Of a DNA stretch of 64,000 nt, positions 22,488-28,841 are shown piece by piece. The translations under genes were made by a program, and so were the position numbers. The DNA lies in assembly GCF_056712565.1 (NCBI RefSeq), contig NZ_CM160072.1; one strand, 5' to 3'. The first letter of the stretch is position 1, and each line of letters begins with the position of its first letter. A model generated the notes under the pieces. That model did not search any database. It saw nothing but the letters and a program-made list of their open reading frames with translations, and was not told the DNA's origin.

Positions 22488-23336
22488 TCATGCTTCGTCT
22501 GGTTGCCAGCCTTCCGTATACCAGATATGCAACAACGCATAAGAACGCCAAGGTTTCCAGCGCTCGGCATAACGGCGGATTTGTGCCGGTGTCATTCCCG
22601 GAAATCGCTGTTTAATCAGATAATCATCCGGCAGAAAAACATCTTTCGCCTGCCAGCCGCGCAAGGCGAAATAATTCGCCGTCCAGCGCCCGATCCCCGG
22701 AAAAGTTTGCAGTTTTTTCATCGCTTGTTCTACGTCGCCCGGTATTGTCATTGGTAAGGTGCCCTCCAGCGCCGCATTTGCCAGATGAATCAGTGCCTCT
22801 GCCCGTTTCAACGGCATACCTAACGCTTTTAATGCCTGCGGGTCGGCTGCAGCCAGCCGCTGAGGCGTGGGGAAGCAGACATAATCCGGAAAATCATCCA
22901 GCCGTTCGCCATAAAGCTGTGCCACTCTGGCGGTCAATTTTGCCGCCATCGCCACGCTCACCAGTTGGCCTAAAATCGCCCGCACGCCCTGCTCAAAAGC
23001 ATCAACACTGCCGGGTAAACGCAATCCGGGCCGCGCCGCGCCTAACTTGCCCAACGCACCGTTAACAATCTGCGGGTTACATTGCAGATCAAACAGGCAG
23101 CTCATTTTCGCCAGACACTCAGCGGCAACAGGTTCTAAACCTGCACTTAAATTTATGTGCAGAGTATGGCGGGCTATATCCGGAATAGCAGTCACCACGC
23201 CGCGATATTCGCCTACCGCCAGACTACAGGCATAATAACTGTCCGCGCCCGTTTCCACGCTGCTCACCGCACGGGCGGCGAGAAATCCCAACATCCACGA
23301 CCAGTCATACGGCGGCTGCCAGTTCAGGGTATACAT
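22488..23336 (-). CDS. alkA: 3-methyladenine DNA glycosylase II
   Basis: 282-aa ORF MYTLNWQPPYDWSWMLGFLAARAVSSVE. Confidence 0.9.
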   Translation of the reverse strand: MYTLNWQPPYDWSWMLGFLAARAVSSVETGADSYYACSLAVGEYRGVVTAIPDIARHTLHINLSAGLEPVAAECLAKMSCLFDLQCNPQIVNGALGKLGAARPGLRLPGSVDAFEQGVRAILGQLVSVAMAAKLTARVAQLYGERLDDFPDYVCFPTPQRLAAADPQALKALGMPLKRAEALIHLANAALEGTLPMTIPGDVEQAMKKLQTFPGIGRWTANYFALRGWQAKDVFLPDDYLIKQRFPGMTPAQIRRYAERWKPWRSYALLHIWYTEGWQPDEA

Positions 23337-23469
23337 CGCATCTCCTTGTTAATCCGCTTTCAGCATAAACGTTATTCAGACGCTGCGCTTTGCTTTCATA
23401 TTCCGGTTGTCGCGACGGCAACATTTCGCTAAAGTCACGCCCCTTCTTCACCGGCATGGGGATTATTTC

Positions 23470-24822
23470 GTGTTTATTGGTTTTGATTACGGTACAGCAA
23501 ACTGTTCAGTGGCGGTCATGCGCGACGGTAAACCGCATTTGCTAAAAATGGAAAACGACAGCACGCTGCTGCCTTCAATGCTTTGCGCGCCAACGCGTGA
23601 AGCGGTAAGCGAATGGCTGTACCGCCATCATGACGTTCCGGCAGACGACGATGAAACGCAGGCGCTGCTGCGTCGGGCGATTCGTTATAACCGCGAAGAA
23701 GATATCGATGTTACGGCGAAAAGCGTGCAGTTCGGTCTTTCCTCACTGGCACAGTACATTGATGATCCAGAAGAGGTGTGGTTTGTGAAATCACCAAAAT
23801 CGTTCCTCGGTGCCAGCGGCTTAAAACCGCAGCAGGTAGCGCTGTTTGAGGATCTGGTCTGCGCAATGATGTTGCACATTCGCCAGCAGGCGCAGGCTCA
23901 ACTGCCGGAGGCAATTACTCAGGCAGTGATTGGTCGCCCGATCAACTTCCAGGGGCTGGGCAGCGATGAAGCAAACACCCAGGCGCAAGGGATTCTGGAA
24001 CGCGCGGCGAAGCGTGCCGGGTTTAAGGATGTGGTATTCCAGTACGAGCCGGTCGCGGCTGGGCTGGATTACGAAGCCACCTTGCAGGAAGAAAAACGGG
24101 TGCTGGTGGTGGATATCGGCGGTGGTACGACTGACTGTTCTTTACTGCTAATGGGGCCACAGTGGCGTTCGCGCCTCGATCGTGAAGCCAGCCTGCTGGG
24201 TCACAGTGGTTGCCGTATTGGCGGTAACGATCTGGATATCGCACTGGCGTTTAAAAACCTGATGCCGTTACTGGGCATGGGTGGCGAAACCGAAAAAGGC
24301 ATCGCGCTGCCGATTCTGCCGTGGTGGAATGCGGTTGCCATCAACGACGTCCCTGCGCAAAGTGATTTCTACAGTAGTGCCAATGGTCGTCTGCTTAACG
24401 ATCTGGTACGCGATGCCCGCGAACCGGAAAAAGTGGCCCTGTTACAGAAAGTCTGGCGTCAGCGTTTAAGCTATCGCCTGGTACGTAGCGCAGAAGAGAG
24501 CAAAATTGCGCTTTCAAGCGTAGCGGAAACCCGCGCCTCACTGCCGTTTATCAGCGATGAACTGGCTACGCTGATTAGCCAGCAAGGGCTGGAAAGCGCC
24601 CTCAACCAGCCACTGGCGCGAATTCTGGAACAGGTGCAACTGGCGCTGGATAACGCCCAGGAAAAACCGGATGTCATCTATCTGACTGGTGGTAGCGCCC
24701 GATCGCCGCTGATTAAAAAAGCGCTGGCAGAACAGTTGCCGGGCATTCCGATTGCAGGCGGCGATGACTTTGGCTCCGTCACCGCCGGGCTGGCACGCTG
24801 GGCGGAAGTGGTGTTTCGTTAA
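23470..24822 (+). CDS. yegD: Hsp70/actin-fold ATPase YegD
   Basis: ORF 23407..24822; start set at GTG (VFIGFDYGTANCSVAVMRDG) to give ~450 aa. Confidence 0.85.
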   Translation: MFIGFDYGTANCSVAVMRDGKPHLLKMENDSTLLPSMLCAPTREAVSEWLYRHHDVPADDDETQALLRRAIRYNREEDIDVTAKSVQFGLSSLAQYIDDPEEVWFVKSPKSFLGASGLKPQQVALFEDLVCAMMLHIRQQAQAQLPEAITQAVIGRPINFQGLGSDEANTQAQGILERAAKRAGFKDVVFQYEPVAAGLDYEATLQEEKRVLVVDIGGGTTDCSLLLMGPQWRSRLDREASLLGHSGCRIGGNDLDIALAFKNLMPLLGMGGETEKGIALPILPWWNAVAINDVPAQSDFYSSANGRLLNDLVRDAREPEKVALLQKVWRQRLSYRLVRSAEESKIALSSVAETRASLPFISDELATLISQQGLESALNQPLARILEQVQLALDNAQEKPDVIYLTGGSARSPLIKKALAEQLPGIPIAGGDDFGSVTAGLARWAEVVFR

Positions 24823-24834
24823 TTGAAAAATGGC

Positions 24835-26784
24835 TCAGCAGCGGCTTAAATCAGCCTTCGCCTGAGCCAGTTTTTCTGCCGCCTGACGTAGCGGCTCCAT
24901 CAACGGCATGGTCCGTGCTGGAGCATGAAGGCGGAATCGCTGCAACTCTGTCGCACCGACAGTCAACGCCGATTCCAGCCGATGTCGTTTGGCGGTCATT
25001 TTCGCCATTACCGCTTGTCTGTCTGCTGGCGTTACCGCTTCATTCGGCCTGAACACAAAACGGCGTTCGCAACTCGCTTTCCAGTCGATAACCGCCTGGG
25101 TCAGATGATCACCAAAACCTTTTACTTGCTTAACGCTCCGTCGGGTAACGTCTGCCGCCGTTTCAATACCAAAGGACCGTAACGCCGCTTTACGCGCAGG
25201 GCCAACGCCGGGAATAGAGGCAACATCAATAAAAAATCCCTCCAGAAACTTCTGCTTCTGCCGTTCCCTTGCGGTGTCCTGAAGTGCTGCCAGATCGCGC
25301 TTTTCTTCTTCCGGTAACCCAAGAATTTCGTCCTTCATTTTTTCGAGCCTCGCCCGTTTGGCGATAAAACCTTCCAGCCCGCCCAACTGCTGGATCTGGC
25401 TGACTAAATGGTCATAGTCCATTTTCGCGCGATTAAACGCCTCACGGCGTTGCTGGATTTCTGCTTTGTACGCTTTGCTTGTCAGGCTGCCAATAATCCA
25501 GATAGCCGCCAGCACAGGAATCAAAATAATATAACTCGGTTCTGCCTGAAGGCCGCAAAACAACAGCGATAACGCTGACAGTGCGATCTCAATCAGAATG
25601 ATGTATTCGCGCCGTAACAGGCCTAAAGGAAGCGACCTGCCAGTCGGTTGGAAATGATCGGGTAATGGCAATTGCAATGCTGGCGGTGCTACTGATGCCA
25701 TCACCATCGCCCAGACTCTCGCCAGCACAAAATCACCGCCGGTGGTAATGACCTCTTCACCGAGATCAATAAAATAGATAACGCCTTGATTATCCAGCGC
25801 ACACCACGGGCAGTCAGTCAAATGAGCGGGGTAAACATGCATTGCCGAAACGGTACATTTCTTTAACTGTTGGCGTAGTAAATCAAGTGCCGCTACCCAC
25901 GCTTTTGCCGTCGGACGCCCGGTTGCCACGCCACTTTCCGTGAATGCCTGCTGAAACATGGCTTCAACATCGCCCGGTAACATCGACAGCGGAATCGATC
26001 GTGGCGGCGGTTTTAAACCACGTCGCTGATTATCTGAGGCGTAGGCATAACGGAAATGGGCAATATCCGTCTCCAGCGCATTACCTGCATCAGAGATAAG
26101 CGGTACACCGGAATAAGGATGCCGCCCACCAAACAAGATGTGAAATATCAGCAACGCAAGGCCAAAATTATCGTGATTTTCTGTGCGTTCAAAGCCGACA
26201 AATGATGGCATGGTTTGCAGCTCTGGCGGCGTAAAATGCGACACGCCGACTTCGCATAAATGCAGTGTACCATTGGCATTAATCTGAAAGGAGTCGCTAT
26301 CAATCAACACCACTTTGCTGTCGCGACCTACCATAAAGCTGTTCTGGTTTACGTCACCCACGACGTGCCCGTGCTCATGAACAGTAGCAAAAGATGAAGC
26401 AATATTGCGCGCAACATAGAGTAGAAAATCCCACGCACAATGAGGGTAACTCTGGCGACGATGTGCCGGGCTATAGATCATATGAATCGGTTCTTTACCA
26501 GAAACTTTTGGCATCATAAAACCGATAACTTTTCCGCCTCGTCCACCGTGAAGCGTTGCCTGCGGCCAGGCGACATAATTCAACAACTGCGCGTCAGCTG
26601 TCGCAGCCATAAAGGCAAGTTTGTCCTGTTTTAAGGCGGGTGGCGGCGTGTGATAAATCTTGGCGACGCTATCGACAAACTCCTCGATATCATAAACCGC
26701 ACCTTCGCCGCCTTTGCCCAGTTCACGGCCAGGCGTAACGCACTCACCAGTAGCAGTATATAAAGTGGGTTTCATGGTAACCAC
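24835..26784 (-). CDS. yegI: Ser/Thr protein kinase-like protein YegI
   Basis: 649-aa ORF; kinase-like N-terminal half, predicted TM segment, C-terminal helix-hairpin-helix-like region; start may be MKPTLYT. Confidence 0.85.
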   Translation of the reverse strand: MVTMKPTLYTATGECVTPGRELGKGGEGAVYDIEEFVDSVAKIYHTPPPALKQDKLAFMAATADAQLLNYVAWPQATLHGGRGGKVIGFMMPKVSGKEPIHMIYSPAHRRQSYPHCAWDFLLYVARNIASSFATVHEHGHVVGDVNQNSFMVGRDSKVVLIDSDSFQINANGTLHLCEVGVSHFTPPELQTMPSFVGFERTENHDNFGLALLIFHILFGGRHPYSGVPLISDAGNALETDIAHFRYAYASDNQRRGLKPPPRSIPLSMLPGDVEAMFQQAFTESGVATGRPTAKAWVAALDLLRQQLKKCTVSAMHVYPAHLTDCPWCALDNQGVIYFIDLGEEVITTGGDFVLARVWAMVMASVAPPALQLPLPDHFQPTGRSLPLGLLRREYIILIEIALSALSLLFCGLQAEPSYIILIPVLAAIWIIGSLTSKAYKAEIQQRREAFNRAKMDYDHLVSQIQQLGGLEGFIAKRARLEKMKDEILGLPEEEKRDLAALQDTARERQKQKFLEGFFIDVASIPGVGPARKAALRSFGIETAADVTRRSVKQVKGFGDHLTQAVIDWKASCERRFVFRPNEAVTPADRQAVMAKMTAKRHRLESALTVGATELQRFRLHAPARTMPLMEPLRQAAEKLAQAKADLSRC

Positions 26785-27533
26785 AGCGCCAGTGCCAACG
26801 TTTTATCATCATCCGTACGCTCGTTTACCGCCGGGCTGGACAAAAACTGCTTTAACAATTCAGGTAATAAATCGAGTTGTTCCTGCGTTGCTGACGCCAG
26901 TCCATTGAAAAACGGGGTAAAGAAAGGCACATGCGGAGAATTATCCAGCATATTTAACGCCAGTCGCTGAATACCATCCGTAAATGCTGCAACTTTGTGC
27001 GCACGCTCAGTGCTGGTGAAAGTTTCCAGTCTGGAAACGGCATCTTCATCGGTAATGAAGTGCGTCATATTGGTATATTCACCCACCATCGGCGTGAGCG
27101 GCAGTTGCAAACCGTGCCCCAAATCTACCACCACGCCGCCATCGCCAATCTGCATAATCAAGGTGCCATTAGCTGATGAAATCAATCCCAAAAACGTGCA
27201 GGCAAAATCGCGAACCGCTAATTCTTTGGCTTCCGCCTCGGCAAAAAGTCGCTGACGAATGGTCAGCACAATGTCCGTTGCGAGGACATCATTAAGCCCC
27301 AATTCCCCGCCCTGCATTTTTTGCGACATATAAGCCATCGCTTCATTGACGGCGAGCATCGCACCTTCGCCACCCTGCGAGACGCTGCCTGCGCCATCAG
27401 CGACAAATACCGACAATAATGGCTGCTGGTCATTTAGCCAGGCAACCTGCATCTGGCAGGCATCCTGGCAAGGCAAATCAGCGCTAATATGCGACGTTCC
27501 AACGGCTGATGCATAGACCAGTCGCCAGCTCAC
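26772..27533 (-). CDS. pphC: PP2C-family Ser/Thr phosphatase PphC (YegK)
   Basis: 253-aa [29 protein letters not shown]; overlaps yegI start and yegL stop. Confidence 0.85.
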
Positions 27534-28189
27534 ACTGACGTCCAGCCTTTTGGCGCTTCCAGCACAACTTCCGTTCCCGGCGTGGAGCGGGAAACCGAAC
27601 GCAGCGAACTGGATAACCAGCTAAACAGTTCACGGAATTGTAATCCCTGCAGAGACAAAGGCTGACGGACGCTGATTTGGGCCAGCGTCTTCATATCCGC
27701 CCCCTGAACACCGATGGTAAAGAAGGCAAACTTCTTATCTTCTTCCCCCTGAAACACTTTGTTGGCGGCAGCCTGCCACTCATCGGTTGGTGCGCCATCG
27801 GTGATCAGGAAAATCCACGGACGATAATAGGAAATACCATTGGCACGATATTCACGTTTCCGCTCCTCAACCATATCCAGGGCTTTGGTAATGGCAGCGC
27901 CCATTGGTGTATCGCCCTGGGCAAACAGGATGGGCGGGAAAAAATTAGCGGCGCTGGTAAAGGGTTGTTCCACATGCACCGGGCCGAACGTCACAATGCC
28001 GAGTTCCACTCTTTTTAAGGCCAGCGAATCGGCAAGCAGCTCATCGCGAAAGGTAACCAATCCGGTGTTAAGTTCATTAATGGGTCTGCCGCTCATCGAG
28101 CCAGAAACATCCAGCAGCAAAATGCAGGGGCAACGTGGTTCCGGGTTACTGGCAAAATCGCTGGTGGCAAACGTGATTTGTTCGCTCAT
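27530..28189 (-). CDS. yegL: von Willebrand factor A domain protein YegL
   Basis: 219-aa ORF with vWA MIDAS-like motif DVSGSMSG. Confidence 0.8.
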
Positions 28190-28362
28190 AAGAAATCCTT
28201 TCTTAGAGAATTATTGAGGTCCGGTATCATACCGATTGCAATAATGAAATAAGAGCAAACGAAGAAACTTTCAGAATTAGGCCCGGCGGCGCAGAAAATT
28301 TTGCTATTCGCCTCGCAAGAACGGAGAGCCGTCGATTGACACTAAGGGCGGAGTGACATAAT

Positions 28363-28513
28363 TTCAGGAGTGAGGGTAGAGCGGGGTTTCCCCCGCCCTG
28401 GTAGTCTTAGTAAGCTGGCCAGCTAATGACTAAGAGCACCACGATGATGAGTAGCTTCATCATGACCCTTTCCTTATTTAAGGCCCCTTCCTCGGGAGGG
28501 GCTTTCCCGTTTC
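28363..28513 (+). ncRNA. sibA: Sib antisense sRNA, copy 1 (approximate ends)
   Basis: Plus-strand transcript antisense to the ibs ORF, ending at the GC hairpin ggcccc...gggaggggc followed by a short T-run (28481..28513). Confidence 0.45.
28407..28463 (-). CDS. ibsA: Ibs-family type I toxin, 18 aa (MMKLLIIVVLLVISWPAY)
   Basis: Minus-strand ATGATGAAGCTACTCATCATCGTGGTGCTCTTAGTCATTAGCTGGCCAGCTTACTAA, read by hand; too short for the ORF track; A/B assignment is by position only. Confidence 0.7.
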   Translation of the reverse strand: MMKLLIIVVLLVISWPAY

Positions 28514-28690
28514 AGCGTCCCGCTGAAATCTTCGGCTTACCTCCTTTCGCCCTGTATGCAGTCTATCGCTGACTTGCGGATAAAATAGTTTCAAGTGTGA
28601 TTATTGCGTAACGACTCGCAAAGAATATTTGCTGGCAGGATCGCAGACTGCAAAGTCTGCGGATTGACAATTGGACCGTGAAGGCATACT

Positions 28691-28841
28691 TTCAGGAGTG
28701 AGGGTAGAGCGGGGTTTCCCCCGCCCTGGTAGTCTTAGTATGCTGGGTAGCTAATGACTAAGAGCACCACGATGATGAGTATCTTCATCATGACCCTTTC
28801 CTTATTTAAGGCCCCTTCCTCGGGAGGGGCTTTTCCGTTTC
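28691..28841 (+). ncRNA. sibB: Sib antisense sRNA, copy 2 (approximate ends)
   Basis: Second repeat unit; same hairpin terminator at 28809..28841. Confidence 0.45.
28735..28791 (-). CDS. ibsB: Ibs-family type I toxin, 18 aa (MMKILIIVVLLVISYPAY)
   Basis: Minus-strand small ORF within second repeat unit, read by hand. Confidence 0.7.
   Translation of the reverse strand: MMKILIIVVLLVISYPAY

Follow-up and report, generated by a model that had tools for sequence, protein, structure and literature searches.

Gene content and orientation of the locus

The DNA analysed here, called the window throughout, is a stretch of 64,000 nucleotides from contig NZ_CM160072.1 of NCBI RefSeq assembly GCF_056712565.1. 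The locus of interest lies at positions 23,470 to 28,189, where yegD, the gene for an Hsp70-like ATPase, meets three genes for a serine/threonine (Ser/Thr) kinase (yegI), a PP2C-type phosphatase (pphC, also named yegK) and a vWA protein (yegL), which we call the triad (Table 1). The window is Escherichia coli DNA, and its region 23300-28400 is 100% identical to strain ZJ3920, whose RefSeq annotation gives the names yegD, yegI, pphC and yegL. Earlier work has described the locus and has characterised PphC and YegI biochemically. In a TerY-P triad, a PP2C phosphatase and a TerY-like vWA protein accompany a Ser/Thr kinase that carries a C-terminal zinc ribbon or another nucleic-acid-binding fusion (PMC11090510, PMC4978471; Anantharaman, Iyer & Aravind 2012 as described there). 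We consider it very probable that two statements hold jointly: yegL-pphC-yegI is a TerY-P-type triad, and yegD is an older bystander beside it.

An earlier note, made from the sequence of this region alone, had listed these four genes. Their positions and identities are borne out by the open reading frame (ORF) listing, by Pfam matches to HSP70, PP2C_2 and VWA, and by the same names in the annotation of the identical genome. The note missed the more precise classification as a TerY-P-type triad. It described the kinase, phosphatase and vWA genes as overlapping on the minus strand, and ATGA overlaps at both junctions agree with this. The yegL/pphC overlap is 4 nt; the pphC/yegI overlap is likewise 4 nt if yegI starts at ATG 26775, and 13 nt if it starts at GTG 26784. 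Because the yegI homologues all begin at the position equivalent to ATG 26775, the true product is probably the 646-aa protein read from there, with the shorter overlap, and Rajagopalan & Dworkin likewise state a 4-nt pphC/yegI overlap. The arrangement supports one co-transcribed, eukaryote-like Ser/Thr signalling unit made up of the three genes. The orientation of yegD needs correction. The note called it divergent from the operon, but yegD (plus strand) and yegI (minus strand) converge tail to tail, with 12 nt (24823-24834) between their stop codons, and the gene divergent from yegD is alkA. With so short a gap, the terminators of yegD and yegI must each lie inside the coding region of the other gene.

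Table 1. Positions of the genes and features discussed; L numbers label the compared loci, and positions without one are those of the window or of the protein named
Feature	Position	Strand	Description
yegD	23470-24822	+	GTG start, 450 aa; Hsp70/actin-fold ATPase
yegI	stop at 24835; start ATG 26775 (likely) or GTG 26784 (longest ORF)	-	Ser/Thr kinase
pphC (yegK)	26772-27533	-	253 aa; PP2C-type Ser/Thr phosphatase
yegL	27530-28189	-	219 aa; TerY-family vWA protein (predicted); first gene of triad
Predicted Escherichia-specific insertion	24823-28309		Triad and ~120 nt of upstream sequence, from the yegD stop codon to the sib/ibs promoter region
YegI kinase domain	~1-305 (ORF numbering from GTG 26784)		Hanks-type; followed by the CHCC zinc-like knuckle
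YegI hydrophobic helices	~393-436 (same numbering)		Two helices; followed by a coiled coil
YegI helix-hairpin-helix motifs	~524-568 (same numbering)		Two motifs; followed by a long C-terminal helix
DUF4236 genes near triads	L015 5578-6750; L022 3331-4473; L050 6746-7987; L053 7005-8330; L066 2962-4182
DUF4236 gene, ter-cluster copy	L069 6838-8046
SNase-like genes	L005 5932-6474; L012 8155-8481; L019 760-1376; L031 7929-8471; L066 6917-7501

Protein components

YegL matches the Pfam VWA model (2e-10). In an alignment of 30 homologues from many phyla, the residues of the metal ion-dependent adhesion site (MIDAS), D27, S29, S31, T94 and D131, are invariant, and so are S193, S195 and S200 in a conserved 15-residue segment of the serine-rich C-terminal tail. 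Alignments of 30 homologues also underlie the invariant residues of PphC and YegI given below. We compared YegL with TerY1, TerY2 and TerY3 from the IncHI2 ter cluster (plasmid pVet6) by phmmer, which gave E values of 2e-21, 4e-16 and 7e-18. The alignment is full-length, and the proteins have in common the DxSxS, T and D positions and a serine-rich W-x-S-x-S tail. Identity to annotated TerY proteins is 28-36% (tblastn). About 2,300 enterobacterial plasmids also give weak YegL matches by tblastn, typically three per plasmid among those inspected; in the one plasmid examined, the three matches fall on the vWA paralogues TerY1, TerY2 and TerY3, encoded in the IncHI2 tellurite-resistance cluster. 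Closer relatives, of 62-73% identity, are carried on megaplasmids or chromids of Cupriavidus, Ralstonia, Pseudomonas, rhizobia and Deinococcus. PDB searches with YegL, both as single sequence and as profile, returned generic vWA domains only. YegL is accordingly assigned, from its sequence, to the TerY family of vWA proteins, and its MIDAS site is intact.

PphC covers positions 1-204 of the 209 in the Pfam PP2C_2 model (1.7e-51), and its acidic residues D24, D46, D131, D186, D242 and D243 are invariant. It has been described as a Mn-dependent PP2C phosphatase that lacks two of the eight canonical PP2C residues, dephosphorylates YegI and can itself be phosphorylated by YegI (10.1101/303594). 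The phosphatase allele of E. coli E69 (locus L026 2980-3738) has 83% amino-acid identity to the window allele and a synonymous divergence (dS) of 0.86, against a dS of 0.22-0.26 for the flanking yegL and yegI. This suggests that the E69 allele was recombined or exchanged, and the published 92% identity between the K-12 and B versions of PphC may be part of the same pattern.

YegI was called a Ser/Thr kinase in the earlier note, and the Pfam scan is silent on this, as the Pkinase model finds no match in the protein. PDB chain searches with the YegI sequence, with a profile and with a profile of the C-terminal domain also gave no match. The structure is more informative. An AlphaFold2 model built on 30 homologues has a pLDDT of 89.4, and the best Foldseek matches of its first ~300 residues are the kinase domains of PknA, PknB, Aurora and BRAF (probability 1.00, target TM 0.6-0.73, ~15% identity). 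Residues G25, G26, E27, K42, D144, D162, D164, E188, D205 and R290 are invariant; among them, G25/G26/E27, K42, D144 and D162 correspond to the Gly-rich loop, the VAIK lysine and the catalytic and metal-binding aspartates of a Hanks-type kinase. In published work, YegI has Ser/Thr kinase activity, with a catalytic-loop motif and a DSD motif that are both non-canonical; it autophosphorylates on S153, S160 and S162 of the activation loop with second-order kinetics, and it spans the inner membrane twice with both termini in the cytoplasm (10.1101/819920). The modelled domain is thus assigned to a divergent Hanks type, and both the structure model and the published biochemistry confirm the kinase identity.

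Downstream of the kinase domain, YegI has a CHCC knuckle, C310-x5-H316-x8-C325-P-W-C328, in which the three cysteines and the histidine are invariant. Its CPWC motif also occurs in the TerY-C domain of TerY3, and the Pfam TerY_C model itself has no match in YegI at E<=0.01. The hydrophobic hairpin that follows is present in 26 of the 30 homologues. The helix-hairpin-helix (HhH) pair is made up of two G-h-G hairpins, IPGVGPARKAALRSFGIETAADV and VKGFG, and is matched weakly by Pfam HHH_5 (2.8e-4, below the gathering score). Both YegL and YegI are listed as DNA-damage-up proteins on overproduction (10.1101/354589). In two cryptic-clade Escherichia draft genomes (L008 8671-10620; L009 4500-6450), yegI is broken into two ORFs by a stop or frameshift, which could be pseudogenisation or an assembly error.

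YegD matches NCBIfam NF008673 over its full length (7e-244, positions 1-450 of 450). A longer yegD ORF, from TTG 23407, was considered and is unsupported, as the family model already spans the 450 residues. The Pfam HSP70 match (1.6e-24) covers only positions 2-205 of the 599-position model, and the PDB matches are confined to the nucleotide-binding domains of DnaK and BiP. YegD therefore has an Hsp70-like fold that consists of the nucleotide-binding domain only, with no substrate-binding domain, and is not a canonical Hsp70.

The triad within and beyond Escherichia

In the window, dgcE and alkA lie upstream of yegD, and two copies of the sib/ibs type I toxin-antitoxin system, followed by mdtABC, lie downstream of the triad. 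Salmonella and Citrobacter have the order asmA-dcd-udk-dgcE-alkA-yegD-ibs-mdtABC, with nothing between yegD and ibs, and a YegD that is 88-91% identical to that of the window. When the window is compared with Salmonella (L067) and Citrobacter (L068) by BLAST, homology ends at 24822, the yegD stop codon, and resumes at 28353 in the sib promoter region. Read by eye, the window has from 28310 the motif GCCTCGCAAG...ATTGACA, which in Salmonella comes after the yegD stop codon. Because homology is lost at the yegD stop codon and regained at the sib promoter region or the 28310 motif, we infer that the triad is an Escherichia-specific insertion of 3.5 kb. Between yegL and mdtA, at 28336-28478 and 28664-28806, lie two full-length SIB antitoxin RNAs (Rfam RF00113, 141 and 139 bits), whereas Salmonella and Citrobacter have a single ibs directly after yegD.

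The locus is found, at a query coverage of at least 80%, in 5403 of 5426 complete E. coli genomes and is therefore part of the backbone of that species. To this extent the earlier note was right to place the set in the conserved backbone, but the placement does not extend beyond the genus, where Salmonella and Citrobacter have yegD without the triad. E. coli ET5 has lost the triad and was considered as an empty site. We rejected it, because its deletion (L001 8524-8665) spared ~80 nt at the 3′ end of yegI and ~40 nt at the 5′ end of yegL and is thus secondary; the true empty sites are those of Salmonella and Citrobacter. A second small deletion in ET5 apparently lies between two GGCAAACG repeats. 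In K-12, a gene on the opposite strand, yegJ, lies between pphC and yegI. The insert that carries it is ~725 nt long (L002 5982-6706), sits exactly at the pphC/yegI junction and sometimes has an IS1 inside. In the window this junction (26772-26784) is uninterrupted and has no yegJ. The insert is present in 1934 of the 5426 genomes, and the junction is intact in 3471, so that the confinement of yegJ to 'K strains' in the literature is too narrow.

Sequence divergence between Escherichia species, measured by the Nei-Gojobori method as the ratio of nonsynonymous to synonymous substitution rates (dN/dS), is low for every gene of the locus: 0.02-0.08 for yegL, 0.11-0.15 for pphC, 0.12-0.17 for yegI and ~0.04 for yegD. 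Over this range of 0.02-0.17, all four genes appear to be functional.

Outside the genus, a profile search with YegI homologues over contigs from one genome per species gave 56 loci, 4 from Escherichia and 52 from other taxa (Beta- and Gammaproteobacteria, Acidobacteria, Planctomycetes, Cyanobacteria, Actinobacteria, Verrucomicrobia and others). The closest YegI matches have 62% identity (Klebsiella spallanzanii and K. aerogenes), followed by 59% in Piscinibacter, Chromobacterium and Serratia. We determined gene order by phmmer, with the four proteins of the window as queries and all ORFs of the 56 loci as targets. At 42 of the 52 non-Escherichia loci the genes abut on one strand in the order yegL-pphC-yegI, most exceptions being contig ends, and the ATGA overlap of the first two genes is often retained. 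When 240 neighbouring ORFs from 37 triad loci were clustered, no universal fourth gene emerged, only ubiquitous two-component proteins, DUF4236 proteins at some loci and lineage-specific genes. Several neighbourhoods that we inspected contain genes of conflict systems or mobile elements: GmrSD, SymE, BrnA and a type I restriction-modification system in K. spallanzanii; an SLFN-like helicase, MazG, an McrA-like protein, an SNase, BrxR and JetB in Piscinibacter; AbiH, a KAP NTPase and Tn7-like genes in Chromobacterium; and two integrases, an IS66 transposase and Rhs in Serratia. HsdM lies near the triad in two further loci. A tblastn search of phage genomes with YegI gave only three weak partial matches, so carriage of the triad by phages is unsupported.

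Two kinds of neighbour recur. In several unrelated phyla, the triad is closely preceded by a gene for a DUF4236 protein of ~400 aa, with a homologue within 10 kb at ~9 loci, and the family is also encoded in the IncHI2 tellurite-resistance cluster, adjoining terW and terY. DUF4236 is thus a second thread that ties the family to Ter systems. E. coli lacks the gene, whose product could be an optional fourth component. A group of betaproteobacterial loci has, on the strand of the yegL-like gene and directly upstream of it, a gene for a staphylococcal-nuclease-like (SNase) protein, which may be a lineage-specific effector. Two loci depart from the usual arrangement. In Candidatus Methylophosphatis (L025 1626-9992) the yegL-like gene is in fragments and is separated by an insert of ~6.7 kb from the genes for the PP2C and the kinase, the latter of which is also broken. 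In an Obscuribacterales metagenome-assembled genome (L058 2998-9967) the PP2C gene is upstream on the opposite strand, the kinase is short (429 aa), and a TerY-like vWA domain lies within a 974-aa protein encoded downstream.

A candidate phosphorylation switch, its alternatives and its kin

The explanation that we favour, with moderate confidence in the whole of it, is that the triad is an autonomous cassette, acquired horizontally by an Escherichia ancestor and landing beside a resident yegD, which acts as a phosphorylation switch of the TerY-P kind. In resting cells, PphC would hold YegI off. A trigger would then concentrate or dimerise YegI, through nucleic acid bound by the HhH pair near the membrane, through ligand capture at the MIDAS site of YegL, or through both, and the concentrated kinase would autophosphorylate in trans. 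Active YegI would phosphorylate its targets, and the serine-rich YegL tail is the candidate that first suggests itself. A precedent is the archaeal ArnA/ArnB/ArnC/ArnD module of Sulfolobus, in which genes for Ser/Thr kinases and a phosphatase accompany that of a stand-alone vWA protein, ArnB, itself a kinase substrate. The output would most likely be a conflict or DNA-linked stress response, directed against phages or mobile elements, rather than routine housekeeping signalling. The recurrent gene order and the lack of a conserved neighbour speak for an autonomous cassette. The empty sites, the fall of YegI identity to 62% and then 59% outside Escherichia, the YegL relatives on megaplasmids, and the integrase, IS66 and Tn7-like genes beside the Serratia and Chromobacterium copies speak for horizontal acquisition. 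The neighbouring conflict genes, the protection given by related TerY-P modules and the DNA-damage-up result for YegL and YegI speak for the proposed output. Within this scheme, the autophosphorylation of YegI, its reversal by PphC and the phosphorylation of PphC by YegI have been shown in vitro by others, and the membrane anchoring of YegI has also been published. The earlier note held the physiological substrates to be poorly defined, in accord with explicit statements in 10.1101/303594 and 10.1101/819920. Placement among TerY-P triads makes this question accessible to experiment in E. coli itself.

That the role is specifically anti-phage or anti-mobile-element is a tentative proposal. TerY-P-like modules, distant relatives of this architecture, protect against T7-like phages and Autographiviridae (PMC7699616, in the part of it that summarises Gao et al. 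2020; 10.1101/2022.08.12.503731). The boldest version is distinctly improbable: a normally silent immune sensor fixed in the E. coli core, in which membrane-bound YegI would detect foreign DNA through its HhH pair at the inner membrane, escape PphC, phosphorylate the YegL tail and other targets, and stop the invader, with DNA damage or growth arrest as the price. The triad would then represent a distinct TerY-P subfamily, marked by its transmembrane and HhH segments, that current defence-finding tools overlook.

Several observations weigh against the favoured explanation. Commonly used K-12 and B strains are sensitive to T7. The triad occupies one fixed site in 99.6% of complete E. coli genomes, which is unusual for a defence system, because such systems are normally patchy. 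Of the contexts inspected outside Escherichia, roughly half are uninformative or of a housekeeping kind. A simple scan for promoters and terminators did not rise above what shuffled sequence gives and found no promoter ahead of yegL, and transcription of the locus was not seen under laboratory conditions (10.1101/303594, 10.1101/819920). The validated kinases of the Gao et al. 2020 TerY-P systems carry an OB fold, whereas YegI has a membrane hairpin and HhH motifs. The PADLOC TerY model matches YegL marginally (E 0.0089) and only 3 of 30 family members; YegK has no match in PADLOC; and the YegI family (n=30) is matched by no TerY-P kinase model, but by PD-T4-6 (28 of 30, best 1.6e-8) and MkoA kinase regions. 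With only marginal or off-target matches for the four window proteins and for the 30-member YegL and YegI families, the triad was rejected as a curated PADLOC TerY-P defence system. Our literature search found no paper linking YegI to phage defence.

The alternative that survives best, possible but rather unlikely, is that the triad has been domesticated as a physiological stress-signalling module, in which the YegL MIDAS site senses a metal or ligand and YegI phosphorylates host proteins. The near-universal, fixed position in E. coli and the purifying selection would fit such a role, as would the homologues that lie among housekeeping genes. So would the kinship of YegL with TerY proteins of the tellurite cluster and the DUF4236 association found there too, and the TerY-P triad was itself originally proposed as a metal- or xenobiotic-sensing phospho-switch. 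Mutations in yegI are also recurrent in long-term evolution lines, which implies a fitness effect where no phage is present. However, targeted work found no inducing condition or substrate, the sporadic distribution resembles horizontal transfer and often places the triad by restriction, Abi or transposon genes, and the architecture of HhH motifs and a membrane anchor points to nucleic acid rather than to a soluble metal signal.

A further alternative, which we judge very unlikely, joins all of yegD, yegI, pphC and yegL into one functional four-gene module, with the Hsp70-fold ATPase acting together with the vWA protein, kinase and phosphatase. The four genes are adjacent in essentially all Escherichia, with only the 12-nt gap between the yegD and yegI stop codons. 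The pair yegD-yegI is listed among overlapping convergent transcripts, as an excludon (PMC12288877), and yegD is strongly induced on overproduction of YegJ, whose gene lies within the operon in K-12 (PMC13232886). No other documented links tie yegD to the triad, and these are restricted to Escherichia. GTPase-centred conflict systems include both proteins with only an Hsp70 nucleotide-binding domain and trios of kinase, PP2C and vWA protein, each in a separate theme (PMC7159879). Against this, none of the 52 non-Escherichia triad loci has a YegD-like protein within 10 kb (phmmer, E<=1e-4), Salmonella and Citrobacter keep yegD at the same syntenic site without the triad, and yegD survives the deletion of the triad in ET5. 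Since yegD and yegI are convergent, co-transcription is ruled out. The gene is separately regulated through RyhB, which activates its translation (PMC4666370), and its dN/dS is three- to four-fold below that of yegI and pphC. In its evolution, yegD resembles a vertically inherited housekeeping gene. The resemblance to a eukaryote-like signalling set proposed in the earlier note thus stands for the kinase, phosphatase and vWA protein, and fails for yegD on account of the 52 loci and the empty sites. In practice, yegD should be dropped from work on the triad, and a test of interactions between YegL, YegI and YegD is unlikely to be informative on the YegD side.

Least probable of all is a silent relic, an old insertion that is unexpressed and slowly decaying in E. 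coli, a reading that draws on the undetected laboratory expression, the yegJ insert that splits the operon in 1934 genomes, the insertion sequences or deletions of single strains (H11; ET5) and the divided yegI of the two cryptic-clade drafts, but that is opposed by the low dN/dS of the three genes, the residues of the catalytic sites, the MIDAS and the zinc knuckle, which are all intact, the 3471 genomes with an unbroken junction and the activity of the purified proteins.

Should the triad turn out to be a switch for immunity or DNA surveillance, E. coli would offer one of the rare examples of a species whose core genome has a defence-type cassette fixed in it, and the PADLOC models tested would have a blind spot. 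Otherwise, it stays among the few Hanks-kinase/PP2C pairs of E. coli that lack a known role.

Among known systems, the TerY-P triad is the nearest in composition. The same three components are encoded in one operon, YegL aligns over its full length with TerY1-3, including the MIDAS site and serine-rich tail, YegI has a zinc-like knuckle with CPWC after its kinase domain, and the genes often lie beside restriction or other DNA-processing genes. The E. coli triad differs in that YegI has no zinc-ribbon end and runs on past the knuckle into the membrane hairpin, coiled coil and HhH pair, and in that yegLKI stands alone, without ter genes, McrBC/CoCoNuT or secretion genes. The TerY-P anti-phage system of Gao et al. 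[quoted passage not shown] With pairs of the PknB/PstP type (PknB-PstP of Mycobacterium tuberculosis, PrkC-PrpC of Bacillus subtilis), the triad has in common the kinase fold, the autophosphorylation of the activation loop and a cognate, operon-encoded PP2C that reverses it; unlike them, YegI lacks an extracellular sensor such as PASTA, carries the altered motifs VGDxxQxS and DSD, and has an obligatory vWA partner. The Arn module of Sulfolobus and the DRA0331-0334 operon of Deinococcus also combine a stand-alone vWA protein with Ser/Thr kinases and a phosphatase, but they include an FHA adaptor, regulate motility or DNA-damage responses, have another gene order and show no sequence-level orthology to YegLKI.

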